In this document: in pieces, positions 1,883-62,993 of the stretch
Numbering within the stretch: position 1 is the stretch's first letter
Layout: every line of letters starts with the position of its first letter
IMG/VR virus record: IMGVR_UViG_3300035146_000036
From: a virus
DNA length: 64,000 bases
Direction: 5' to 3' (one strand)
Made by a program: the position numbers and the translations under genes
The notes under the pieces: generated by a model
Seen by the model: only the letters and a program-made list of their open reading frames with translations
The model's database searches: none
What the model was told of the DNA's origin: nothing

Positions 1883-4354
1883 ATGAGTAATACAATTTTG
1901 TCAGGTGATTTAACAATTTATTATTTGTCTGAAAATAGAAGAAAACAGATTACATGGAGTGGTGGTAGTACTAAAGCAGATACACAGAAGATGATTGATA
2001 TTTATTCTGCGATGCAGGATTTATTTTCTTCTGCTCCTCAAATGGATGATGGGGTTATTTTTTCAGCTGAAACACCTGGTGAATATACAATTGGTAAAAT
2101 TGATGCTGCAGATGCTGAGCCATGGTTTATAGATTTGAGAACTATGCAGCATATAATAGGTGATTATGAGAATTTTACTGGATGTGCTTTAAAGACATCA
2201 GGATGGAAAAGAATAGTTGATAGTAATACTGGTATAGTTGTTGTTCCTGTTACAAATGCTAGTAATAATATAGTATTAGGTGATGTTGGAAATGCAATAA
2301 CTCATACAGATGGAGATGCTGGTATATTATTAGATGTTGTTGTTCCAGGTGGTACAACAGATTATTTGTTTGTAAGACCTGATTCTAGCGCTGCTGCGAA
2401 TAATTTTGACAGTAGTAGTGGAACTTTGACTTGTAATGCACATACAGCAACTCAATCGGCGGTTTCTGTTACAGGAGAGATGATTTGGGGAAATGTATAT
2501 ACGCAGGGTGGAATTTTATCTGATACTCATATTTACCTTTATCAAAATGGTGAGCGTGTTACATCTTTTGATCAGACAAATCAAGATTGGTGGGAAGATG
2601 GTCATTTGGATAGAGCTATTCCCATAACAGATTATACTACAGATAATTTTCCAGTTATAGATAGTGGTTATTTGACGGTTTATGCTAGATGTTACACAAG
2701 TGGATATTCATTTGTTGAAATTAGAATGAATACAACTTCAGGAGGTAATGTTTCTGCTCCATTGTCTTCTAGCACAGATTCTAATAATTCTACTGGATAT
2801 GCAAGTATTACTCTTTCTGGAGGGTCTGGTAATTGGAATATTGGAGATGAAATTTCAGGAGATACATCAGGTGCAAGAGGTATAATAACTCTTGTTTCAG
2901 GTACTAATCCTACCCCAACGTTGCATTTTTATTATGTAGGAGACCCATTTATAGCCTTTAATGGGTCTGAAGCAATTACAAATGAGGATGATACTGGTGC
3001 AGCAACTGGGTCTGGATCTGTTGCTAATCAAGGTCCAGCATTAACCACTTGGTTTGATGGAAATGTTTTACCAACAGTTGCTTTTACTGCGGTTACAGCC
3101 GATATTGATGATGATGGTTCAGATGAGCCATATAGTATAACATGGGATTTAAATCAAGCAAGTTTAGCTCAATTTTATGAGTATATGAAATATGTATGCA
3201 GAAGAGGTTCCACATATAATTTGGATGATCTTGATGGTCAAGAGTATATTGGTGTCACATATAGAGTAAATTATACTGGAACAGTTACAGGTACTGTAGA
3301 CGAAGGGGATTCAGTAACTGGAGTTACTTCTGGTGCTATTGGTTTAGTTCTATCTCATGATACAACTAATAAGGTTATACTTCTTAGAAATACAAGGGGT
3401 ACTTTTATAGATGGAGAGCAAATTCAGGTTGATGTAGGTAATTATATACCAGCAAGTGGAACTACTGTTTCAACAATTACTCCTATTTCTGAATGTCCGT
3501 TTGGAACATTAGCTGGTGGTATTTTCTTTGGGTCTGTTGGGGTTTTAATTTCTGATTATAAAAGTTCAGAAGAGAATTATTTTCAACTAAAAGATTCAAA
3601 TGGAGTAACTAGATCAAGGCCAACTTCTACATCTATGACTGTTTCGAATGTTGCACCATATGATTGGGTTGGAGTTTACAGGTTGTTATCTCAAGGTGGA
3701 AATATAAACAAAACAGAGTATTCCGCTGCTGGAGGGGAAACACCTGGTGATAGTACATTAGATGTGAGTGGGTCTGTAACCGTTGATACTCCAGGGAAAA
3801 CAGCTGGAGGAAGATTGGTTCTTATTGATGCTAGTGAAAATAATGCTGAATATATATTAAGATATTCTTCTTGGTCTGGTTCGCAATTTATTTTGGCAAA
3901 TTTTGCTGATACAGCAGAAGCAGGAACCAATTCAACAACGATTGTTGCTGTTGGTGCATTTTCATCTTCTGAAGTTGGAGACTTGATTTATAATGTTACT
4001 AGAGACGAAGTATCTTATATATCAGAGGTTACAAGTAATGATGAAGTTCAACTTGACCCAAATTATCCAATAGTTGGACAGACTACTGGAGATTCATTTG
4101 AGGTTAATGCTGTTCCTATAACGGTTACATCTAGTGATTATATATTTGTTCCTATTATTTTAACGTTTGTTACATCTGGTACAACAGTAAGTGCTTCGAT
4201 GGTTTTTGTTTCTCCTATTTATGGAAGAACAAGAGTTAGAAATACATCTGGTGCATCAGTTAAAATTGAGCCATTTACATCAGAGGTAACGATTCCTGCT
4301 ACTGGTGGTGAAACTGTTGCTGTTAGGAATCCTGATACGGTTTATAATGGATAA
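1883..4354 (+). CDS. Large structural protein (823 aa), fibre-like
   Basis: Long ORF with GGAG RBS; Ser/Thr/Gly-rich beta-type composition; follows the beta-helix protein. Confidence 0.45.
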   Translation: MSNTILSGDLTIYYLSENRRKQITWSGGSTKADTQKMIDIYSAMQDLFSSAPQMDDGVIFSAETPGEYTIGKIDAADAEPWFIDLRTMQHIIGDYENFTGCALKTSGWKRIVDSNTGIVVVPVTNASNNIVLGDVGNAITHTDGDAGILLDVVVPGGTTDYLFVRPDSSAAANNFDSSSGTLTCNAHTATQSAVSVTGEMIWGNVYTQGGILSDTHIYLYQNGERVTSFDQTNQDWWEDGHLDRAIPITDYTTDNFPVIDSGYLTVYARCYTSGYSFVEIRMNTTSGGNVSAPLSSSTDSNNSTGYASITLSGGSGNWNIGDEISGDTSGARGIITLVSGTNPTPTLHFYYVGDPFIAFNGSEAITNEDDTGAATGSGSVANQGPALTTWFDGNVLPTVAFTAVTADIDDDGSDEPYSITWDLNQASLAQFYEYMKYVCRRGSTYNLDDLDGQEYIGVTYRVNYTGTVTGTVDEGDSVTGVTSGAIGLVLSHDTTNKVILLRNTRGTFIDGEQIQVDVGNYIPASGTTVSTITPISECPFGTLAGGIFFGSVGVLISDYKSSEENYFQLKDSNGVTRSRPTSTSMTVSNVAPYDWVGVYRLLSQGGNINKTEYSAAGGETPGDSTLDVSGSVTVDTPGKTAGGRLVLIDASENNAEYILRYSSWSGSQFILANFADTAEAGTNSTTIVAVGAFSSSEVGDLIYNVTRDEVSYISEVTSNDEVQLDPNYPIVGQTTGDSFEVNAVPITVTSSDYIFVPIILTFVTSGTTVSASMVFVSPIYGRTRVRNTSGASVKIEPFTSEVTIPATGGETVAVRNPDTVYNG

Positions 4355-4633: not shown

Positions 4634-5020
4634 ATGAGAATAAAAATAAAAAATAAAGATAAGGATGAGAATATTAGAAAAAAATTAAGAGCTTCTAATA
4701 TTGATAAAACTGATACTATTGAACAAAGTATAGAAGAGGTTAGATCTCTTAAAAAAGAACGTTTGAAATATATTGAAATGCGTGAAGCGTGTTCTGTACA
4801 GTATGAATATATTGACCAGATTTATTATGATGGAGAAATAGATAAGGATAATAGAGATGATATAATGGATAAAATTGAAGTTAATAAAGAGCGATTTGAA
4901 AATTTAATTGAATCATATGATTTATTAATAGAAGCTAGTGAGGATATATTAAAAAGTTTGACTGGAAGTAATTCTTTAACTGGAAAGATAAAAGATAATG
5001 GCAAGGTAAGCAAAAAATAA
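4634..5020 (+). CDS. Hypothetical K/E-rich coiled-coil protein
   Basis: ORF, charged composition. Confidence 0.4.
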   Translation: MRIKIKNKDKDENIRKKLRASNIDKTDTIEQSIEEVRSLKKERLKYIEMREACSVQYEYIDQIYYDGEIDKDNRDDIMDKIEVNKERFENLIESYDLLIEASEDILKSLTGSNSLTGKIKDNGKVSKK

Positions 5021-9907: not shown

Positions 9908-12703
9908 ATGACTGATTACACATATCCTGGGGTCTATATTCAAGAGGTTCCTAGTGGTCCTGGTCCGATTACTGGTGTTTCAACATCTAATTTGGGTCTT
10001 ATTGGTTTTTCTACCAAAGGTCCAGTTAATGAACCAATTATATCGACAAGTTTTCAGGAATTTTCGAACAGATTTGGAAGTTTTACAGAGAAGGGTTTAT
10101 CTGCTCATGAAGCGTTTGCTTTTTTCTCTAATGGTGGACAAGTTTTGTATTTTGTTAGGGTTGTGGCTAGTGATGCTGCAACAGCTTATTGGGATTTTGC
10201 TGCAACAGTATCAAGTGAAAATGTATCAAATACTGCTGAAGGAACAGGGATTTATGATTTGGAATTAGATCATTCTCCGGTTGTTCCTGCTACATTGACA
10301 TTGACTTTTACAAATTCTGGTACACCAGCAAATCAAAACGTATTTGTTGCTGATGCTAGTGGTGTGTTAACGTTAGATACAACAGCATCGGGTGTTTCAG
10401 CTGATGGTGGTACTGGTTCTGTTGATATGGAAACAGGGGAGATTCATGTAGAATTGACTACACCTGGTCAATTTACAGGAAGTACTGATTATATTGTAGC
10501 TGAATATAATTATACGATATTCAGGTTTAGAATGGCATGGCCAGGATTGGCTGGGAATTATTTTAGAGTAAGGATAATTCCAGGAAGTGATGATTATCTT
10601 GTTCAGGCTGAAGCTAGGTGGACAAGATTTACAGTAATCGTTGAAGAAGATGTAAATTATGATGCAACAAATCGTTCATGGTCAATTGTTGAGACATGGG
10701 CAGATCTTGTATTTGATGATTCAGAGGATCCAAATTTTGTTGCTACAGTAATAAATGCTGATGGTGCTGGGTCTGATTATATCGAAGTAGTTGATTATGG
10801 AAACGGAATGAATCCTGCAGCGCTTGCAGGAACACAAATTACGTCTGAGGATATTTCTGATACTCAATTACCACAAGGCAGCACTTCTACTCCTCCTGTT
10901 GCATATGACGGAACAACAAAGGCTTGGGAATATACATTGGCAAATGCTCCATTTCAGAAGACTTTGAATATGGATTTTCAGATGGCTGATGGCTTAGTAT
11001 CTTTTACTGGTGCAGCCACAGCGGATAATGTAGTTCTTACAGATTCTGGAGCAAATTTTACTGGTGGTGGGGCAGCAGATAATTTAGCTGGTAAGATTGT
11101 TGTAAATATATCAAAGGGAGCATCTGCAGTAATAACTGCAAATGATGCAACGACAATAACAGGTGTATTAACAGGTGGGGCTGTAACATGGTTAACAGGT
11201 GATTTGTATGCTGTTATTGAGGCATCAACAAAGATAGGAACAGGAACTGCTCAAGCAAGTGGTCAAGAATCTGTAATATCACCTGGTAATACATCAAATC
11301 CTGTTCAGATTGTTCCTGGTTCAGTTGTGATGGAATTGACTCTTACTGGACCTACAACTGTTCATGTTATAGATGATGGATCTGGTAATTTATGGGATGG
11401 TTCTGGTGGATCGTTGGCAACAATTGATTATACAACTGGTCAGATTACAGGTATAAGTCCTACAACTGATGATCTTATTACGATACAGAGTGTTACAGCA
11501 TGGGCAAGTGACACAGTTGCTGTTGGTAGCGAAATTAAATTTGGTTGTATATATGCAGTTCCAATTGCATTGGAGGATGATGCGGATGGGAATATGGTAA
11601 TGTCAGATACCCAAGCAACTGGGTATCCTGCTAAGTTTTCGCTTAATCTTGTTTCTGGTGTAAATACTGTTAATTATACAACTGGTGTTGTTGATTTAAC
11701 ATGGAAAATTGAGGGTAATCCAGTTGCAGGTCCAGCAGGAGTATATTCTGAAACAGCAGATTATTATACAAATCCAGATGATGAGATAGCAACGGTATTA
11801 ACAGGAGGGTCTGATGGTTCTTCTGTTTCTAGTGATGATGTTGTAGGTGCAGATTTGGCAGTTGACCAGGAAGGCATATATGCTTTTGGAAAAGTAAATG
11901 CCTTGATGCAACTTGTAGCTGCTGATTTTCAGACAGATACAAATGTTGCTGATGCACTTATTACATATGCTGAATTGGTGAAGGATAAATTTGTTATTTT
12001 GACGGTTCCTCATGGTCTTAGTTATCAAGAGGCTGTTAATTGGAAGAAATTTCAACTTAATAAATATACTTCATATGCTGCTTTGTATTATCCGCATATC
12101 AAGATTAAGGACCCTGTGAGTGGAGTAAATCAGGATATTCCTGTTGGTGGACATGTAGCTGGGGTTTACGCAAGGACTGATACTATAAGAAATGTTGGTG
12201 AAGCTCCTGCTGGTACCGAAAAAGGTGTTTTGAATTGGTCAACTGGTCTTGAAGTTGAGTTGACTGATACACAGGTTGGTATTATATATCCAGAAAAGAT
12301 AAATGCTTTAGTAGCATGGGCTAATACTGGACGTGTTGTATGGGGTGCTAGAACATTAGATATTTCTGGAGGTGAATGGCCATATATTCAGATGCGTAGG
12401 CTTTTCATGTTTGTTGAAAAATCAGTGTTTAATAGTACTCATTTGCATGTATTTAAAAACAATGGTTCTTCATTATGGAGTGCAATAAGAACTCAGGTCG
12501 TTTCTTTCTTGTTAGGTTTGCACCAATCAGGATATTTTGCTGGAAATAGTCCAGATGAGTCATTCTTTGTGATTTGTGACCGGTCAAATAATCCTCAGAA
12601 TACAGTGGACCAAGGTATCGTGTTTTGTGATGTAGGGATTGCACCTAATAAGCCAGCGGAATTCATAGTGTTCAGATTTCAGCAAAAGGCACTCACTAGT
12701 TAA
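9908..12703 (+). CDS. Contractile tail sheath protein
   Basis: N-terminal YPGVYIQEV and C-terminal VVWGARTL motifs are characteristic of the phage/T6SS sheath family; size and position ahead of the tube genes. Confidence 0.85.
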   Translation: MTDYTYPGVYIQEVPSGPGPITGVSTSNLGLIGFSTKGPVNEPIISTSFQEFSNRFGSFTEKGLSAHEAFAFFSNGGQVLYFVRVVASDAATAYWDFAATVSSENVSNTAEGTGIYDLELDHSPVVPATLTLTFTNSGTPANQNVFVADASGVLTLDTTASGVSADGGTGSVDMETGEIHVELTTPGQFTGSTDYIVAEYNYTIFRFRMAWPGLAGNYFRVRIIPGSDDYLVQAEARWTRFTVIVEEDVNYDATNRSWSIVETWADLVFDDSEDPNFVATVINADGAGSDYIEVVDYGNGMNPAALAGTQITSEDISDTQLPQGSTSTPPVAYDGTTKAWEYTLANAPFQKTLNMDFQMADGLVSFTGAATADNVVLTDSGANFTGGGAADNLAGKIVVNISKGASAVITANDATTITGVLTGGAVTWLTGDLYAVIEASTKIGTGTAQASGQESVISPGNTSNPVQIVPGSVVMELTLTGPTTVHVIDDGSGNLWDGSGGSLATIDYTTGQITGISPTTDDLITIQSVTAWASDTVAVGSEIKFGCIYAVPIALEDDADGNMVMSDTQATGYPAKFSLNLVSGVNTVNYTTGVVDLTWKIEGNPVAGPAGVYSETADYYTNPDDEIATVLTGGSDGSSVSSDDVVGADLAVDQEGIYAFGKVNALMQLVAADFQTDTNVADALITYAELVKDKFVILTVPHGLSYQEAVNWKKFQLNKYTSYAALYYPHIKIKDPVSGVNQDIPVGGHVAGVYARTDTIRNVGEAPAGTEKGVLNWSTGLEVELTDTQVGIIYPEKINALVAWANTGRVVWGARTLDISGGEWPYIQMRRLFMFVEKSVFNSTHLHVFKNNGSSLWSAIRTQVVSFLLGLHQSGYFAGNSPDESFFVICDRSNNPQNTVDQGIVFCDVGIAPNKPAEFIVFRFQQKALTS

Positions 12704-13456: not shown

Positions 13457-13984
13457 ATGCGAGCAGCAAATACAGATTTCATGCAAGGTTTTAGATATCA
13501 TGTTGTGGCAAATAATGGGGAGGGCGATCCACTTCAACCATCAGTTCAATCTGATCGTGATGGTCATGATACAAATGGTCAAGCTGGTTTTCAATCGGTT
13601 ACAATTCCAGAAATTTCGGTGGAAGCAGCTGAATATAGAGAAGGTATTTTTAAATGGACAGAAAAATTTCCTGGTCCACCTACTGTATCAGAATTGACTA
13701 TGATGAGAGGTATTACAAAGCGTGATACTACATTTTATGATATGGTAATGGCATCTGTTGAAGGTGCGGAATATCGAGCAGATGTAATAATATATCATTA
13801 TCAGAGGTCTGAGATGGCTTTAGCTACATCAGCTACAGTTGGTGATGATATTCGTAGGATTGAGTGTGGAGAATGTTTTGCTATTCGTGCTAAACCAAAT
13901 GGAGATTTGGATTCTACGGCTGGAGATGTTTCTTTAGGTGAAGTAGATCTTGCAGTGGAAAAATTTGAAGTAAAATATTCTTAA
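13457..13984 (+). CDS. Tail tube protein (T4 gp19-like)
   Basis: FQSVTIPEISVEAAEYREG matches the gp19 family signature (F..VsGl..e.ev.eYrEGg); about 175 aa directly after sheath. Confidence 0.7.
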   Translation: MRAANTDFMQGFRYHVVANNGEGDPLQPSVQSDRDGHDTNGQAGFQSVTIPEISVEAAEYREGIFKWTEKFPGPPTVSELTMMRGITKRDTTFYDMVMASVEGAEYRADVIIYHYQRSEMALATSATVGDDIRRIECGECFAIRAKPNGDLDSTAGDVSLGEVDLAVEKFEVKYS

Positions 13985-14005
13985 TATTTTTATGAAGGTG
14001 CATAA

Positions 14006-14563
14006 ATGGCAAGAAATCGTTTATTGGATTTTATGCAAACTCATAAATTTTGGCTATTCGATGTAGTTCCAAGTTTGTCGCCTCCTTTTTGGGTTTTAGG
14101 GACACCCTTTTTAGGTTTTTCGAGTATTACAGCACCACAATATACTGCTGAAGTTGATAATATAAAACAGATTAATTCTATGTTTCGGAAATATGCTTAT
14201 TCTGGAGGACAAGTTGATCCAATAGTATTAACAAGAGGTGTTCGTGGTTTTGATGATACTATGTGGGAATGGATGTATAGGGCAATAACTGGTCTAGAGG
14301 TTACAAATAGACATTTGTTATTGCTTCATTTTACGAATATTAGATTATCTGATAGTCCTTTTCCAAATGTGGCTGAAGGATTTCAATTTCCGATGACTGC
14401 TGGAATTTTTCTTCCTGGTAAAGCATGGCTTCTTTGGAATTCTATTCCAATACGGTATAAAGCTGGATCAGATTTTGATGGCAAAAGTGGTGAAGTTAGT
14501 TTGGCTGAATTAGAGGTTCAGCCAGAAGCTATAACAGAATTTACATTGTTAGATCCTGTATGA
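14006..14563 (+). CDS. Tail tube paralog (gp19-like)
   Basis: Same domain pattern (LGFSSITAPQYTAEVDNIKQIN); second tube gene. Confidence 0.55.
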   Translation: MARNRLLDFMQTHKFWLFDVVPSLSPPFWVLGTPFLGFSSITAPQYTAEVDNIKQINSMFRKYAYSGGQVDPIVLTRGVRGFDDTMWEWMYRAITGLEVTNRHLLLLHFTNIRLSDSPFPNVAEGFQFPMTAGIFLPGKAWLLWNSIPIRYKAGSDFDGKSGEVSLAELEVQPEAITEFTLLDPV

Positions 14564-16659: not shown

Positions 16660-16677
16660 GTGTTTTATGTCAAACAC
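16660..16677. terminator. Hairpin between convergent genes (GTGTTT-tatgtc-AAACAC), weak bidirectional terminator candidate
   Basis: 6-bp inverted repeat where plus and minus genes converge. Confidence 0.3.
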
Positions 16678-17015
16678 TTATTGATCCATTCAGTAATGAG
16701 AGCATCATAGATTTCACAGACATCGCATGGTTTAGTAAGAATATGTATATTGGGCATATCATATTTGAGTGTATAGTTTGCTGTATATATTACGAATGGT
16801 ATTGTTGAATGTTGAACTATTTTTAGTCCGTCTGATTTGTTTGGGCAATCCCAATCGCTAAGGATTATGTCAAAATTTCCGTCTTGAAGAGCTATTAGTC
16901 CATCATCACAGGAATGTTTGACTGTTATACTTTTCCAAGTATTTTTCATTACTCTGGAAAGCATACGAGTAATTTGTTCATCATCATCAATGATTAGTAA
17001 ATTCAGGTTTTTCAT
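16665..17015 (-). CDS. Stand-alone response-regulator receiver (CheY-like REC) domain protein
   Basis: LLIIDDDE...DIILSDWDCPNKSDGLKIV...LTKPCD aligns with CheY DD pocket, phospho-Asp (ISDWNMPNMDGLEL) and conserved Lys (VVKP). Confidence 0.8.
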   Translation of the reverse strand: MKNLNLLIIDDDEQITRMLSRVMKNTWKSITVKHSCDDGLIALQDGNFDIILSDWDCPNKSDGLKIVQHSTIPFVIYTANYTLKYDMPNIHILTKPCDVCEIYDALITEWINKCLT

Positions 17016-17022
17016 TGTTTTT

Positions 17023-17232
17023 TTACCATACGGCTATTTGTTTTTTGCATGAATCACAATGTTCAGTGTTTGATTTGGAGAGATGTGAATTCATAATAAA
17101 AATAGCAGTTCCTTCTTTTTCTAGTCGTTTAGCACATTCTGTACAATAGAGATAACCTCTGTTGTCGACTATTCCTGTAATTGTATTATTTGGGTCATTT
17201 TTTTGATAGATATAAATTTCTGAGGCTTTCAT
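17023..17232 (-). CDS. Small CxxC...CxxC zinc-ribbon protein, co-transcribed with REC gene
   Basis: CTEC...CDSC motifs; 8 nt upstream of the REC ORF on the same strand. Confidence 0.5.
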   Translation of the reverse strand: MKASEIYIYQKNDPNNTITGIVDNRGYLYCTECAKRLEKEGTAIFIMNSHLSKSNTEHCDSCKKQIAVW

Positions 17233-17393: not shown

Positions 17394-17573
17394 ATGCCAA
17401 GGTTGAATGTTGAAATAAAAAGTGGTGTATATAAGAGGTTTCTTGATCAATGTAAGGAGGATGGTAGAAGTGCTAGTGATGTTGTTAGAGAGTTGATTTT
17501 AGATTATGTGGAGAGAAGAGTTAGGGAAAAATTTAGGATTGCTAAAATAGAGAAAGAAGTTACAGATGAATGA
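17394..17573 (+). CDS. Ribbon-helix-helix (CopG/Arc-like) DNA-binding protein, 59 aa
   Basis: VYKRFLDQCKEDGRSASDVVRELILDYV is a typical RHH beta-strand plus two helices; GGAAGG RBS; below the ORF-track size cutoff. Confidence 0.6.
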   Translation: MPRLNVEIKSGVYKRFLDQCKEDGRSASDVVRELILDYVERRVREKFRIAKIEKEVTDE

Positions 17574-18393
17574 GATGAATGATGAAAAGGTTATCGATGA
17601 TAAAATTGTATTAGGTAAGACAAAAGGTCATGTTCTTGATATAGGGCCAGGTTGTATTACTATTGAGTTGCCAGCAGGATATATTCATGAGGATGGAGAG
17701 CTTCACGTGCATGCTGTATTACGTGAGATGAAGGGACCAGAAGAAGAATTGTTGGCTAGTAAAGGTTCAATAGTTTCTAGATTGAATGTTATAATTGGGA
17801 ATTGTTTAGAGCAAATAGGGTCTATTAGTGATAAGTCTTTATTAAGAAAAATAGCTTGTAATCTGATAGCTCAAGATAGAATGGCTATTCTTTTGGCTCT
17901 TCGTAGAATATCACTTGGTGATTTTTATGATTGTACAGTTACATGTCCAGAGTGTAATGTGAGTCAGCATGTTACGGTAAATTTATCAGAAATTGAAATT
18001 TCACCAATGCCAAATAGGATGGAAAGAGAAATGGTTAATGTTCTTCCTAGTGGAAGAGAAGTAAAATGGCATGTGATAAGGATAGAAGATGAAGAATGGC
18101 TTACAGAGCAGCGTAAAAGAAAAAGAGATAAAGAACTTTTAACATTACATTTATTGTCTCGTGTTGATTCGATTGATGATATTGAAGTAGATAGAAAGAA
18201 TAAGTATAAAGAAGCTATTGATTTGTTGATGGATTTACCGATAAGGGATAGAGCTACTTTGAGAGATCTTTTTGATAAAAAAGAAGATAATATAGATACG
18301 TTGGTGCAGTTTATGTGTGAGAGGTGTGGACATGAATGGGAAGGTAAGTTGGATGTTGGTCAGCCAAGTTTTTTCTTCCCATCGGTCAAATAG
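17566..18393 (+). CDS. Tail assembly chaperone candidate (gpG-like); -1 frameshift at 18369-18375 would extend it to 18575 (gpGT-like)
   Basis: Located immediately upstream of the tape measure gene; T TTT TTC slippery heptamer near the 3' end; the -1 frame is open to 18575. Confidence 0.5.
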   Translation: MNEMNDEKVIDDKIVLGKTKGHVLDIGPGCITIELPAGYIHEDGELHVHAVLREMKGPEEELLASKGSIVSRLNVIIGNCLEQIGSISDKSLLRKIACNLIAQDRMAILLALRRISLGDFYDCTVTCPECNVSQHVTVNLSEIEISPMPNRMEREMVNVLPSGREVKWHVIRIEDEEWLTEQRKRKRDKELLTLHLLSRVDSIDDIEVDRKNKYKEAIDLLMDLPIRDRATLRDLFDKKEDNIDTLVQFMCERCGHEWEGKLDVGQPSFFFPSVK

Positions 18394-18600
18394 ATGTCCT
18401 TGAGGATGAAATGTTTTATTTAATGGAAAGACAAGGACAGAGTTATTTGACCATTATGAATATGCCATATTCAAGAAGAAAGCGGTTTGTAGAAAAAAAA
18501 TCTTCATTAGATAGATCTGCTATGAATGTTAAAAAGAATCAGCAAAGTTATAGCAGACCAAGACGAAGAAGGTAACGAACTCGAGTTCGTGAGGTAAATA

Positions 18601-21600
18601 ATGAGTTTTCTTGGTATATCATTGGAGATGGCAGCTGTTGATGCTGGGATGAAGGATGGCATTATAAAGGCTGCAAAAGCACTTGATGATGTTAACAAAA
18701 TGTTAATAGACCAGGATAGTGTTATCAAGAAAATCAAGAAAGAGAATTTTTTTGAAGATACAGAAAAAAATGCCGGTAAAGCATCTAATAAAGTAGGTAT
18801 TTTATCTAAGACATTTAAAGAGCTTGGCAATATTGGGTCAAAATCTGCAAATAAAATAAAATCATCTTTTGATAAAATAAGAAATTCTGTGATGCAATTT
18901 AATATTGCTGATATGGCATCAAATGTTAGAACATTAACTGGAGAGACTGGTAATCTTACAAATAGTTTGGAAGCTACAATGGTGAGTATGCTTCAGTCTA
19001 CTAAACCAGTTGCTGCATCATTGAATTTATCAGGAAAGGAGATGAGGAAGTTTGCAAGTCAAGCGGCAAGTATGGCCTATAGTATGAATACATCGGCTGA
19101 TGCTGTTGCAGAGACAATGAGGTCAATTCATGTAGCTAATAAGGGAGCAACAGAGGCTATGAATGAATTGGGATTGTCTACAAAAGATTGGGTAAAAGTT
19201 GTTCAAACAACTAACGTTCCTATGTCTGAATATACAGCTATTCTTGGTGATATGACAACAAGTTGGCAAGCTTCACCAAAAGAGGCCGCTAATATGATTG
19301 ACAGCCTTATGGCAATAGGAAAGGCTGCTGGAACTGGAACTGGTGCTGTAAAGAATGCAAAAGTTCAGTTGGATGAATTAGGGGAAGTTTTTAAAACATT
19401 GCCTCCTTCTATGGCAAGAACTTCTGACGAGATAATGAGTTTAATGCAATCATCAGCTAGAATGTCTGGTGTATTTAGAGAGATGGGAGATACGCAAGAA
19501 GAAGCTATAACAAAGGCAAATACTGTAGCAAGAATGTTTGCTGAACAGGATGTAGCTATTAGAAAAGCTTTAAATATTGGTGATGACCGTGCTCTTATGG
19601 ATAATCCATTGCTTAAGTATCTTATGAGACTTGGTATTGGATTTGATTCGGCCAGAAAGATTATTGAAACTGGTAGTCGTGATGTAGTTGCTGGTATGAA
19701 GATGGTTAATAATGTTTATGCACGTTTTGGAACTGATGTGTCTCCACAAGTTCAAAGAGCTTTATCTGGATTAAGTGGTGCTCTTGGGGAAGGAGCTGCT
19801 GGATTATCATATTTGGCGACTAATACAAAACAAGGAACTGCTGCATTAGATAAAATGGCAAAAATGGCTGTTGATGGGTCTGGTGCATTAAAGAAATTTG
19901 GAAAAGATGCATATAGTTCCGGGTTAACCTTACAAGAAACATATGATAGAGCAAAAGAGTCATTTGATACAACTGTTAGAAGTATAGCTAGACAAAATGT
20001 AAGAAATCTTGTTGGAAAACAAATTGCTGGTATGCGTGAAGCAGGAAAAGAAATAAAAGAACTTGGTTCTGATAAAACTTGGGGACCATGGGTAAATGCA
20101 TTATCTCAATTTCGTCAGATGGGTATTAGTGGTGTATTTGCATCTATGGCTGAATATACAGGGGTTGGTGCTAAAAACGCGGCAAAATTTGGATCTAAAA
20201 TTGGATTAGTATTTGATACAGTTAGTCAGTTTGGAAGTGAACTTGCTCCAATAATGCATATGTTGGGTATGGCAGGTCCTCTTGCTCCATTAATTGCTGC
20301 TGGAGGTATTGGTGCTTTATTATTTATGGATGATTCGTCTGTTAGACAAATTTTAGGTCCATTTTATAAAATTTTTAATGATTTAAAAAATAAGGCTGCA
20401 AAAATATGGGATTATTTTATAGGTATTTGGGATAATAAAGTTGTTCCTAGGATTAAAGTATTTTGGAAATATGATATGAAACCAGCAATGATTGATTTTT
20501 GGAATGAAGATTTTATTCCTTTTTTGAAAGAAAATATTCCTAAATTGGGGATGGCAATATGGGATGGAATTAAGTGGGCTTGGAATAAATTAGGAGAGAT
20601 GACAGGAACTACTGGTCAGGCAGGTGTTATAGGTGGAGCTATGTTGGCTGGTTTTGGACCAGGAATGGTCGGAGCTGGTACTCAAGCTGGAATAGCTTTT
20701 TTGAAAGCTGTTGCATCTCATCCAACTGCTGCTGGTGCTACAGGTCTTGCTGGTTTAGCTGCTTATGCTGGGTGGAAAATGGCAGAGTCTATTTTTGGGC
20801 CAAAATCTGTTAGTAATGCAATAGCTGAAGCTGAGGTAATAGCTGGTGGAAGTGCTGATAAATTTGGAATGTATAAGTTGGCATGGCAGCGTAAACCGGA
20901 AGAGATGGCAGGTCAATTGGGCAGATTAAGAGCTGCTCTTAAAGCGGAAAAGGAAAGTTGGTTTCCTGATAGTGATGATGTTAAAATTCTTGAAAAAGCT
21001 ATATCTTTATTAACAGATGCCCAAAGTGAGCTTATTCTTGATAAGACGGAATCGAATGTTGAAAAATATACTTTGGGTGGAAAGACGACAGCAGAGCAAT
21101 TTATAAATGGTCTAACATCAGGATTAGAAGAAGGTAGGCAATCTGTTGATGATGGTCTTGATTTTATAGCAGATGGAATGATAGCACATTCTCCAATAAA
21201 ATCTGGTCCTCTTGCTGGTGAAGGAGAGTCTAACGCTGCATATCGTGGTGGATATTTTACGATGGAACAGTTTGCTTTAGGTATTACAGATAGTACTGAT
21301 ATTATTAGGAGAGCAATTGAAACAACTCTTAATGATTCTGTTATACTTACTATAGATACATATGCTGCTAAAATGAGAGACCTTGCTAAACAAAAGATGT
21401 TTTTGGCATCTGTTGCTAAAGCAATGGTAAAAGATTTAGGTGGAAATATAGAAACATCTATTGATTCCGAATCTGATATAAATGTGAAAAAGAATTTTGA
21501 AGCTGCTATGAATTTACCTGGTCTTGCTAGTGTTGTTTTGGCTGTTTCAAATGAAGGTGCTCAAACAAGGAAATTATTAAAACGTATTTTAGAAGAAAAT

Positions 21601-21675
21601 ATACGTCAAACTAGTGTAATGAGTGGTGGTGTGAGTATTCCTGTGACAGGAACTACTACTCCACCACCAAGTTGA
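18601..21675 (+). CDS. Tail tape measure protein
   Basis: 1024 aa, Ala/Gly-rich helical protein with hydrophobic Gly-rich segments; between chaperone candidate and baseplate genes. Confidence 0.75.
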   Translation: MSFLGISLEMAAVDAGMKDGIIKAAKALDDVNKMLIDQDSVIKKIKKENFFEDTEKNAGKASNKVGILSKTFKELGNIGSKSANKIKSSFDKIRNSVMQFNIADMASNVRTLTGETGNLTNSLEATMVSMLQSTKPVAASLNLSGKEMRKFASQAASMAYSMNTSADAVAETMRSIHVANKGATEAMNELGLSTKDWVKVVQTTNVPMSEYTAILGDMTTSWQASPKEAANMIDSLMAIGKAAGTGTGAVKNAKVQLDELGEVFKTLPPSMARTSDEIMSLMQSSARMSGVFREMGDTQEEAITKANTVARMFAEQDVAIRKALNIGDDRALMDNPLLKYLMRLGIGFDSARKIIETGSRDVVAGMKMVNNVYARFGTDVSPQVQRALSGLSGALGEGAAGLSYLATNTKQGTAALDKMAKMAVDGSGALKKFGKDAYSSGLTLQETYDRAKESFDTTVRSIARQNVRNLVGKQIAGMREAGKEIKELGSDKTWGPWVNALSQFRQMGISGVFASMAEYTGVGAKNAAKFGSKIGLVFDTVSQFGSELAPIMHMLGMAGPLAPLIAAGGIGALLFMDDSSVRQILGPFYKIFNDLKNKAAKIWDYFIGIWDNKVVPRIKVFWKYDMKPAMIDFWNEDFIPFLKENIPKLGMAIWDGIKWAWNKLGEMTGTTGQAGVIGGAMLAGFGPGMVGAGTQAGIAFLKAVASHPTAAGATGLAGLAAYAGWKMAESIFGPKSVSNAIAEAEVIAGGSADKFGMYKLAWQRKPEEMAGQLGRLRAALKAEKESWFPDSDDVKILEKAISLLTDAQSELILDKTESNVEKYTLGGKTTAEQFINGLTSGLEEGRQSVDDGLDFIADGMIAHSPIKSGPLAGEGESNAAYRGGYFTMEQFALGITDSTDIIRRAIETTLNDSVILTIDTYAAKMRDLAKQKMFLASVAKAMVKDLGGNIETSIDSESDINVKKNFEAAMNLPGLASVVLAVSNEGAQTRKLLKRILEENIRQTSVMSGGVSIPVTGTTTPPPS

Positions 21676-22073
21676 GATATAAAATGAGTATTGGAACAGA
21701 CCCAAATCCAAAGAAGAATTTATTGAGAGCTAGTACATTTTCTTATATGAATTTTATGCCTGAGCAGTTGATTTATGATAAGGAAAAGAATAATTTGATT
21801 AGATTTAGATCTATGTTTGAAATGCCTAATTGGGATGGTGTGGAGGATGGAGAATTTAGTTATGTTATTAGTGGGCAAAATGAACGTTTGGATAAAATAG
21901 CTGCTAAATTTTGGGGAATTGATAGACAGGAACTTTATTGGGTAATTGCAGCAAGAAACAATTTGGATCTTCCAGATGTTCAACTTTATCAAGGTAGGAC
22001 AATAAAAATTCCATCTAAAAGTTGGATAGATACATATTTGTTACCTCAAACACAGAATTATATTGAAAGATGA
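21672..22073 (+). CDS. LysM-domain tail protein (P2 gpX-like)
   Basis: YVISGQNERLDKIAAKFWGIDRQELYWVIAARNNL...GRTIKIP is a LysM motif; 4-nt overlap with the tape measure gene. Confidence 0.65.
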   Translation: MRYKMSIGTDPNPKKNLLRASTFSYMNFMPEQLIYDKEKNNLIRFRSMFEMPNWDGVEDGEFSYVISGQNERLDKIAAKFWGIDRQELYWVIAARNNLDLPDVQLYQGRTIKIPSKSWIDTYLLPQTQNYIER

Positions 22074-23398
22074 CAGTTAGATTTATAGATCCTGTTGCAC
22101 AAGTAATAATCAAAGACCATGAAAGTGGTGAGGAATGGCATTGGGGGTCTCCATCACATCCTTTTTTGACTTCTCTGACTATGATATGGGAAGGTGATAT
22201 GGTTATAACTGGTATAGTTATAGGTGTAGATATGCCTTATGATTATGCTATGACTGCGCTTGACGCATCAAAAACGCCATTTAAAAAAGATAATCTTGTG
22301 AGAGTTAGAATGGGATATGCATCAGGGGAATGGACAGAATGGGCTCATGGTGTATTAGCTGTTGGAGGAAAAGGATTATCAATAGGACCAGATGGTTTAT
22401 CTGGTAATTTAGAAGTTAGTCATGTACCGATGAAGCTATCGGGATATACAGTTTCGAAAGATATCTTGAAGAATGCTGGATATGATGTTGAAAAATTATT
22501 AAAATTACTAGGGGAAGAGATAGGTTGTGAAGTTGATATAACATCAAATGCTTTATCAAATATGAATGCATGGAAGCTTGCTGAACCAAGAACGATTTCT
22601 TATAAAGAAAAGGCTAATTTCTATGCTGGTCTTGAAGGTATGAGTATTTGGCAAATTTTTATAACTGTTTGTAAAGATAATGATTGTTCATTTTTTATTA
22701 AGAAATATAAGGGTGAGAAGACAATAATTGTTCATACTGAAAAAGATATAACGAGTGGTAATTTGAATGAAACTGATTATGTAAATAAATATGTAATAAG
22801 AGGTATTGTAGATCCTTTAAATAATCAATATCCTTGTTTTGGATTTACACCTAAATCTGATGAGGCAGTGTGGTTGAGTAGGATACCTAGTTCTGCATCA
22901 GCAGGAACAAATGGTAGGGGAATAGATTCTGAGACTGCTGAAGATGTTGAATATGATGTTAGGTCTGAAGATCAAGAAGATGCAAGAGATGGTAAAGTTG
23001 AGAATACTGAGCCACAAGATATAAAAGCATCTGATGGATATGAAAAATATATAGCTGATGCTTTTAAAAATGATGGTTCTCTTGGAACTTTTATGAGTGC
23101 ACCAATTTTACCATATGGAACAGAAATTTTTAAAAATCAGGTTAGAAAATTTCAACGTCAAGGTGATCCTGGTATGCATATGGAAATAAACAGTATTGGT
23201 GTTCCTAGTGAAATGGTTGGTAATCTTTGTCAGTTGTGGGGTGCTGGTGTGTTATTTAATGGTACGTTTTGTATAGAGAAGATGGTTCATTCGTGGAGTC
23301 CTGGTTCATGGGAAATGCGATTGAATGTTTATAGACGTGGATATAAGGCTGTGTCTGGAGAGCAGAAAGAATCTTCTGGAGGTCAGCTTCCAAAATGA
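22070..23398 (+). CDS. Putative baseplate hub protein (positionally equivalent to P2 gpD / T4 gp27)
   Basis: Synteny only: tape measure, LysM, this ORF, spike; translationally coupled. Confidence 0.4.
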   Translation: MTVRFIDPVAQVIIKDHESGEEWHWGSPSHPFLTSLTMIWEGDMVITGIVIGVDMPYDYAMTALDASKTPFKKDNLVRVRMGYASGEWTEWAHGVLAVGGKGLSIGPDGLSGNLEVSHVPMKLSGYTVSKDILKNAGYDVEKLLKLLGEEIGCEVDITSNALSNMNAWKLAEPRTISYKEKANFYAGLEGMSIWQIFITVCKDNDCSFFIKKYKGEKTIIVHTEKDITSGNLNETDYVNKYVIRGIVDPLNNQYPCFGFTPKSDEAVWLSRIPSSASAGTNGRGIDSETAEDVEYDVRSEDQEDARDGKVENTEPQDIKASDGYEKYIADAFKNDGSLGTFMSAPILPYGTEIFKNQVRKFQRQGDPGMHMEINSIGVPSEMVGNLCQLWGAGVLFNGTFCIEKMVHSWSPGSWEMRLNVYRRGYKAVSGEQKESSGGQLPK

Positions 23399-62470: not shown

Positions 62471-62546
62471 TGCGGAGTAGAGCAGTAGTTTAGCTCGCTG
62501 GTTTCATACGCCAGGTCAGTCAAGGGTTCGAATCCCTTCTCCGCAA
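62471..62546 (+). tRNA. tRNA, anticodon CAU (Met, or Ile2 if lysidine-modified)
   Basis: Cloverleaf folded by hand: acceptor TGCGGAG/CTCCGCA, D-stem GAGC/GCTC, anticodon stem CTGGT/GCCAG with loop TTCATAC, T-arm AAGGG-TTCGAAT-CCCTT; variable loop looks 7 nt. Confidence 0.6.
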
Positions 62547-62559
62547 AAATTTAGTTTAA

Positions 62560-62631
62560 GCCGATGTAACTTAATGGTAGAGTAACTGACCTGTAATCAG
62601 TTTGTTGGAGGTTCAAGTCCTCTCATCGGCT
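62560..62631 (+). tRNA. tRNA, anticodon UGU (Thr) with unusual C33
   Basis: Acceptor GCCGATG/CATCGGC, D-stem ACTT/GAGT, anticodon stem ACTGA/TCAGT with loop CCTGTAA, T-arm GGAGG-TTCAAGT-CCTCT. Confidence 0.6.
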
Positions 62632-62641
62632 TTAGGAGGTA

Positions 62642-62902
62642 TTGATTATTATCATGTTATTAGAACCTGGTTCAGTTGCTTTTGTGATAAGTAGTGATTA
62701 TGTATATGGTGGTTATCCTGTAGTTGTTGTTGAAGAAGATACTAGTAGAGAAAATTGTTTTATTGTAAGGAAAAAAATTGGTTTAATATGGTATAATCAA
62801 GTCGTTTCTAGAGATATTCTTAGGGAGTTATCTTTTGATGAGGTAGAGAAATATAAAGAAGATTTGGATTTTTTGAACATGTCGCTTCAAAAGAAGCTTT
62901 GA
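62642..62902 (+). CDS. Hypothetical small protein between tRNAs
   Basis: ORF. Confidence 0.3.
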   Translation: MIIIMLLEPGSVAFVISSDYVYGGYPVVVVEEDTSRENCFIVRKKIGLIWYNQVVSRDILRELSFDEVEKYKEDLDFLNMSLQKKL

Positions 62903-62920
62903 TTGAAACGTAATAAATAG

Positions 62921-62993
62921 TCGCCATTAGCTCAATTGGTTAGAGCGCTCGCCTTATAAGCGAGTGACCGAGGTTCAAATCCTTGATGGCGAA
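62921..62993 (+). tRNA. tRNA, anticodon UAU (Ile, AUA-decoding)
   Basis: Acceptor TCGCCAT/ATGGCGA (7 perfect bp), D-arm GCTC-AATTGGTTA-GAGC, anticodon stem CTCGC/GCGAG with loop CTTATAA, T-arm CGAGG-TTCAAAT-CCTTG. Confidence 0.7.

Follow-up and report, generated by a model that had tools for sequence, protein, structure and literature searches.

The tail assembly chaperone gene that directly precedes the tape measure gene in the phage represented by IMG/VR record IMGVR_UViG_3300035146_000036 would, in our reading, give rise to two proteins, a short form that ends at the zero-frame stop codon and a long form produced by a programmed -1 slip on the heptamer T_TTT_TTC, and we put the probability of this reading at about 85%. 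The source analyzed was a 64,000-nt stretch of that record, referred to below as the window. What was computed directly is the geometry of the site and its lack of variation among the relatives compared, the family to which the protein belongs and the conservation of the -1 frame as protein-coding sequence. A frameshift in a tail chaperone gene is in itself ordinary and is well known in long-tailed phages. Among the GenBank relatives that were inspected there was no annotated joined product, the extension being listed as a separate small gene or left unannotated, and no published description of recoding in genes of the gp26/gp51 type was found, which is not proof of novelty. On the present reading, the annotation of the window gene should name a tail assembly chaperone and join its -1 frameshift product, in place of a "baseplate hub" protein followed by a hypothetical 54-aa ORF.

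The proposed slip site and the -1 frame

The 275-aa ORF has the C-terminus ...GQPSFFFPSVK*, encoded by the zero-frame codons AGT TTT TTC TTC CCA TCG GTC AAA TAG, with the TAG at 18391-18393 (Table 1). When coordinates and register were re-derived, the placement of T_TTT_TTC at 18369-18375 at the end of this ORF, as given in an earlier note made from the letters of this DNA, proved correct. A -1 slip would make CTT (18375-18377) the first codon of the new frame, followed by 65 further sense codons and the TAA at 18573-18575, so that 60 of the 66 post-shift codons lie past the zero-frame stop and bases 18375-18393 are dual-coding with the zero-frame end. The same note had rightly described the -1 frame as open to this TAA, had the stop just 5' of the tape measure start and overlapping a palindrome (the last A of TAA is the first base of the palindrome at 18575-18590), and had placed the chaperone directly 5' of the tape measure gene (the extension ends at 18575 and the tape measure gene starts at 18601); one of its counts needed revision, the open stretch being 66 codons rather than 61. 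The gap to the tape measure start is 25 nt. The predicted trans-frame product has 336 aa (270 + 66) and reads ...GQPSFF-LPIGQIDVLEDEMFYLMERQ...RPRRRR, and the tryptic peptide predicted to span the slip junction is LDVGQPSFFLPIGQIDVLEDEMFYLMER.

Table 1. Features in and around the chaperone gene (positions in the window)
Feature	Position	Strand	Remarks
Sheath gene	9908-12703		Upstream of chaperone
Tube genes	13457-14563		Upstream of chaperone
Short-product gene, zero frame	17566..18393	+	275-aa gp26/gp51-family (PF12322) tail/hub assembly chaperone, by sequence assignment
Slippery heptamer T_TTT_TTC	18369..18375	+	X_XXY_YYZ register (agT TTT TTC); zero-frame stop 15 nt on
-1 frame extension	18375..18575	+	66 codons plus TAA; translation LPIGQIDVLEDEMFYLMERQGQSYLTIMNMPYSRRKRFVEKKSSLDRSAMNVKKNQQSYSRPRRRR
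Predicted RNA stem-loop	18384..18452	+	Begins 8 nt 3' of heptamer; in the window only, not conserved
GAGGA and ATG 18411	18401..18413	+	5-nt spacing; possible own start of 54-aa ORF 18411..18575
Palindrome copy ACGAACTCGAGTTCGT, 16 nt	18575..18590		Between extension stop and tape measure ribosome-binding site
Tape measure gene	18601..21675	+	1024 aa, ATG at 18601; presumed chaperone client
Palindrome core copies	6585, 8698, 15321, 18577, 24700, 40162, 43247, 53494, 57068, 60491		

Family and fold of the chaperone

By sequence, the product of the gene at 17566-18393 is a member of the T4 gp26/gp51 family of tail/hub assembly chaperones. The 275-aa protein matched the Pfam family PF12322 ("T4_baseplate") over residues 70-260 with 51.3 bits (gathering cutoff 24.5; E 1.6e-13) and was also matched to phrog_150. 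The same Pfam family was matched by T4 gp26, by T4 gp51 and by all 32 aligned homologs of the window protein, as well as by 37 of 37 homologs in the databases, whose lengths range from 222 to 306 aa. Consistent with this assignment, a BFVD fold search returned T4-like baseplate hub assembly proteins with E-values down to 5e-26. A second PF12322 paralog was not found in the window, and an NCBIfam search gave nothing useful.

The AlphaFold model of the chaperone has a core with pLDDT >90 and, together with a half-versus-half hhalign comparison (E 2e-6), indicates that the protein consists of two tandem modules of ~110 aa (residues about 20-145 and 146-268), each closed by a CxxC zinc knuckle (C127/C130 and C251/C254). 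The predicted structure may resemble solved phage tail assembly chaperones, and the closest known systems include the HK97 tail assembly chaperone (PDB 2OB9), YqbN of B. subtilis (3KLU) and RBSTP2171 (3FGX); a Foldseek search of the model against the PDB gave nothing significant, nor did the fused profile retrieve any PDB sequence. One distant homolog, P0037, scored above the gathering score of PF10109, the family of P2 gpE and Mu gp41, with the match falling on the second module, and no match to PF10109 was obtained for the window protein at E-values up to 1.

Conservation of the site and the -1 frame

Relatives were gathered from IMG/VR, GTDB genomes and GenBank phages, and the site was compared in the window and 20 distinct relatives that span 25-81% protein identity and a locus GC content of 34-67%. 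Both the slippery site and the open frame, which the earlier note had described in this one DNA, were retained among them: NNT-TTT-TTC was found in register in the window and in all 20 relatives, down to 25% identity, at 12-24 nt ahead of the zero-frame stop, and across 22 loci the -1 frame contains 0 stop codons past the zero-frame stop, whereas the two remaining frames contain 55 and 75. Mean column identity is 57% in the alignment of 21 sequences, all of which share the nucleotide block GTTTTTTCTTCCC without change. The codon that precedes TTT-TTC encodes S, G, N, D or F and its third base is always T. The share of TTT among Phe codons varies from 0.06 to 0.97 across the relatives, and the invariance of the site goes beyond what a conserved Phe-Phe would explain because TTT makes up just 6-32% of the Phe codons in several of them; the site persists even where this share is as low as 6-14%.

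The -1 frame itself evolves as a protein-coding sequence. The consensus of the extension is LPxG..LExEVFFL.E....Y..xMxMPYSRRKRFVExK followed by a basic tail, and differences at codon positions 1, 2 and 3 were 0.48, 0.365 and 0.659, respectively, which is an excess at third positions. Such an excess (0.65 versus 0.42 and 0.33) was also present in the part of the extension upstream of ATG 18411 in the window.

The alternative that survives best, which we nonetheless consider unlikely, is that recoding does not occur and that the ATG at 18411 opens a small gene of the ordinary kind, the 54-aa ORF 18411-18575, the heptamer being no more than conserved Phe-Phe codons. In its favor, ATG 18411 is preceded at a distance of 5 nt by GAGGA (18401-18405), ORFs of this sort are called on their own by gene callers and in GenBank (HSE3 gp075, NVP2275O_435, P0132 and P0133-P0152), and a distant clade carries the domain as a separate ORF. 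Against it, the ATG is not retained even in the closest relatives, being ATA in L043 (81% identical) and ATT in L005 (69%), and the GAGGA is accounted for by the conserved LEEE codons of the LE(D/E)E motif. The LPxG..LExE segment that lies upstream of the ATG is conserved with the coding signature of the -1 frame, and no ATG, GTG or TTG precedes the conserved LExE in 14 of the 20 loci with reliable data. Several relatives (L008, L022, L023, L027 and L037) have their first start codon only 19-40 codons into the extension. In addition, the synonymous positions of the heptamer are frozen despite a strong opposite codon bias. Since ATG 18411 has a well-spaced GAGGA, a separate 54-aa protein is possible in the window, where it would coexist with the frameshift product and not replace it.

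Less likely still is transcriptional slippage, in which the RNA polymerase rather than the ribosome would lose or add a base on the run of T. The site is indeed homopolymeric (T6 in the window and T8 in L043), and sequence comparison alone does not distinguish a slip at the RNA level from a ribosomal one. Six T is a short run, however, and efficient slippage by RNA polymerase usually requires runs of about 7-9 or more. Moreover, the trailing C and the codon register are kept throughout the relatives, even at the two places where the site has moved independently (L030 and L041); this fits tandem tRNA re-pairing on X_XXY_YYZ, and the closely similar T_TTT_TTG of P2 is annotated as a translational frameshift.

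The co-occurrence of heptamer and open frame is beyond chance overlap. As a control, all plus-strand ORFs of the window with 100 aa or more (66 ORFs) were scanned for in-register X_XXY_YYZ heptamers, which number 169, with 22 falling in the last 20 codons of an ORF; among these 22, a long -1 continuation is present only at 18369-18375, where it extends 60 codons past the stop (next best, 17 codons). The supposition that the heptamer and the open -1 frame coincide without function, to which an AT-rich window with so many in-register heptamers might lend itself, is effectively refuted by this control, in which -1 open runs have a median of 4 codons and reach at least 60 codons at just 1.5% of codon positions, and by the conservation of the open frame in 22 loci.

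Other arrangements of the extension among relatives

The heptamer is not always at the same distance from the stop. An in-register T_TTT_TTC with an open -1 frame was found 48 nt before the stop in L030 and L031 and 3 nt before the stop in Vibrio phage 2.275.O. A distant clade (L026, L028 and L034; 28-29% identity) has no heptamer and encodes the extension domain as a separate ORF of ~95 aa, around 3210-3500, with a GTG start just past the stop; this ORF still carries RLFVPLG..LE...MP.SRRRRLVE. Physical fusion is therefore not obligatory for the existence of the domain. Around 2150-2400 of Bacillus phage BCD7 (L050), a homolog of the extension was noted in the -1 frame of a locus that has neither an FF motif nor an X_XXY_YYZ heptamer, the only run ahead of the stop being CTG GGG GAG.

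At six further loci the extension lies in the +1 frame: Listeria phage LIS04 (L045), Bacillus phages SP-15 (L046) and HSE3 (L040), Streptococcus phage GXN1 (L039), Microcystis phage Mel-JY01 (L048) and LR756508 (L049). At these loci the junction always contains a pyrimidine directly after a Phe codon (TTT-T or TTT-C), and a +1 slip there would yield ..FF-(V/L/T)P.., which matches the FF-LP of the -1 clade. The +1-frame loci may use +1 recoding or separate initiation.

The closest relative at the protein level mentioned above, L043 (CAYUTF010000016.1), is a 53-kb contig from a metagenome bin labeled "uncultured archaeon", which is a binning label only; an archaeal host has no independent support from sites of the Shine-Dalgarno type or from the T4-like tail genes.

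Database searches with the extension and RNA structure

The window extension matched no Pfam family, and specifically not DUF6760 (PF20546), a family of small uncharacterised proteins. DUF6760 was weakly matched by the extensions of 6 of 24 relatives (best E 1.8e-4, all below the gathering score), and because of these matches it may be the separately annotated form of the extension; no literature on DUF6760 was found. PF28602, a newer Pfam family, lies on the C-terminus of gp51 homologs. A word-index search with the extension returned only the identical 54-aa ORF, and an exhaustive search gave 20 representative matches, 19 of which are small ORFs of 52-85 aa. A protein of 676 aa accounts for the remaining one and shows ten partial matches. 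An in-frame fusion of PF12322 to the extension was not recognised among the 20 matches, the 676-aa protein not having been inspected. The model of the extension has three helices (273-289, 294-298 and 302-327) with pLDDT values of 57-69, in a region with almost no alignment depth.

The stem-loop predicted 3' of the heptamer in the window has a centroid energy of -21 kcal/mol and a z-score of -2.41, and 3 of 200 shuffled sequences were as good. RNAalifold found no consensus pairs 3' of the site in 19 relatives. A hand-drawn hairpin of 6 bp around the zero-frame stop was rejected (51.8% paired versus 48.0% for shuffles). We do not claim a stimulatory RNA structure for the site.

Gene neighborhood

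The chaperone gene sits within a contractile-tail module with the order sheath, two gp19-like tube proteins, chaperone, tape measure, LysM protein, hub, gp5/VgrG-like spike and gp6-like wedge. The hub gene is at 22070-23398. The tape measure protein was matched to phrog_167 ("tail length tape measure protein"; E 1.5e-7) and weakly to PF10145 (E 0.0027). Two minus-strand ORFs, 16665-17015 (-) and 17023-17232 (-), break the otherwise plus-strand tail module; one of them encodes 116 aa that on visual inspection suggest a response-regulator receiver domain, and the other encodes 69 aa with two CxxC pairs. A 59-aa ORF at 17394-17573 resembling Arc/RHH proteins (weak Pfam and PHROG matches) overlaps the start of the chaperone gene.

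The 12-nt core of the palindrome, GAACTCGAGTTC, occurs in 10 copies in the window versus 0.06 expected, and a relative that is 69% identical (L002) has a copy of the palindrome at the same spot, about 4976-4990. Its likely role in this phage group is that of a regulatory site or an RNA hairpin; it is probably a regulatory element in its own right that lies outside the frameshift signal.

Three tRNA genes, for Met (cat), Thr (tgt) and Ile (tat), are present at 62471-62993, and a gene for tRNA-Phe was not found in the window. Identical or related proteins (P0132, P0004 and P0030) are encoded on contigs of 149-173 kb. The genome of the phage is probably well over 100 kb.

Proposed mechanism

The slip itself, how efficient it is and what each of the two products does are inferred, and the following sequence of events is put forward as a model. 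For most ribosomes, translation would end at the TAG at 18391-18393 with the 275-aa short form. A smaller share would step back one base on U_UUU_UUC at 18369-18375, with two tRNA-Phe re-pairing in tandem (UUU-UUC to UUU-UUU), and would then read 66 codons to the UAA at 18573-18575, so producing the 336-aa long form with its additional, predicted helical and basic domain. If the analogy with lambda G/GT and P2 E/E+E' holds, the tape measure protein would be coated by both forms, bound through their common core, and the rarer long form would use its extension to attach the complex to the tube or hub and thereby start polymerisation of the tail tube. Neither form would be expected to stay in the virion, again by analogy with those two systems.

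Comparison with known systems

In lambda, binding to the tape measure protein is a function of the G part and binding to the tube protein one of the T part, and the virion contains neither (PMC5009743). The window gene resembles lambda G/GT in lying next to the tape measure gene on its 5' side, in the slippery heptamer near its 3' end and in the combination of an abundant short product with a rarer, C-terminally extended one, which here is predicted. It differs in that lambda gpG has about 140 aa, compared with 275 aa here, in that the window protein is a tandem duplication of a zinc-knuckle module, in that the lambda heptamer is G_GGA_AAG and in that the tail here is contractile. No sequence similarity to gpG was detected, and of the gpG/gpGT-like pair proposed in the earlier note it is thus the arrangement that stands and not homology to lambda gpG.

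The P2 system shares several features with the window gene. Both P2 gpE and the window protein are chaperones of myoviruses encoded ahead of the tape measure gene, the P2 heptamer T_TTT_TTG lies 14 nt before the stop (NC_001895) whereas T_TTT_TTC lies 15 nt before it here, and the extensions are about 57 aa in P2 and 66 aa here. Unlike the window protein, however, P2 gpE is a single module of 91 aa that lacks zinc knuckles. Within the P2/Mu gp41 family (PF10109, PF06528), the PF10109 cutoff was passed by distant homologs and not by the window protein, and PF06528 was not matched by the window extension at E-values up to 10. Direct homology of the chaperone to P2 gpE was rejected (hhalign E 0.51), as was the identification of the extension as a homolog of P2 E' (hhalign E 0.035, equal to the reversed control). 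Since the PF10109, PF06528 and hhalign tests failed, we have not placed the window protein in the P2 gpE/E+E' family; by sequence, the relation would be at most a distant one, via P0037.

The third system for comparison is T4 itself, whose tail has gp26 and gp51 as its "hub assembly chaperones" and in which gp51 is needed for hub and tail assembly while being absent from the finished particle (PMC3004832). According to a major review, long-tailed phages share G-T frameshifting as a conserved feature "except T4" (PMC5009743). The two PF12322 paralogs of T4, gp26 and gp51, come from separate and divergently transcribed genes. The first of these (208 aa) stops 3 residues after an EFF motif, much as the zero-frame product here stops 5 residues after SFF(F), and the second (249 aa) continues in frame into a 48-aa tail that weakly resembles the -1 extension of the window. 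Unlike the window gene, T4 gene 26 has no heptamer, its 3' end being GAG TTC TTT GAG TTA CTA TAA, and genes 26 and 51 are not adjacent to the tape measure gene, gene 29.

Several comparisons bear on whether the gp51 tail and the -1 extension are related. An hhalign alignment of the trans-frame products with gp51 homologs was continuous through the extension (E 1.6e-4), and when the tails were aligned alone, the gp51 tail against the -1 extension gave P 4.9e-4, compared with 0.16 for the reversed control. In the AlphaFold models, helices of 15-17, 5 and at least 16 aa follow one another in this order in both the gp51 tail and the extension, beyond the last strands of the zinc knuckle. When a HMMER profile of the gp51 C-terminus was searched against all six-frame segments, the extensions did not score above decoys, and the link to gp51 therefore rests on hhalign and the order of secondary structure only. 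These results are suggestive only of homology between the gp51 tail and the -1 extension.

T4 gp26 and gp51 could correspond to the short and long forms made from two genes, a correspondence that we regard as plausible, not established, with the odds about even. Equally balanced, in our estimate, is the broader proposition that the PF12322 family is the contractile-tail counterpart of lambda G/GT, whose long form can be made interchangeably by a -1 slip, through the +1 frame, from a separate ORF or from a duplicated gene. The -1 slip on T_TTT_TTC would be the route in the phage of the window, in the Vibrio jumbo phage and in a 595-kb megaphage, and the +1 frame behind a UUU-Y junction that in SP-15-like phages of Firmicutes, in the Microcystis phage and in a 484-kb megaphage. 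A separate ORF would serve in L026, L028 and L034, and gene duplication in T4, where the gp51 copy would carry the extension in frame. If true, such interchangeable routes would account for T4 as the stated exception to tail-chaperone frameshifting. Should the correspondence of gp26 and gp51 to the two forms hold, the T4 exception would become a testable case of gene duplication replacing recoding, and it would provide a concrete hypothesis for the long-questioned role of gp51.
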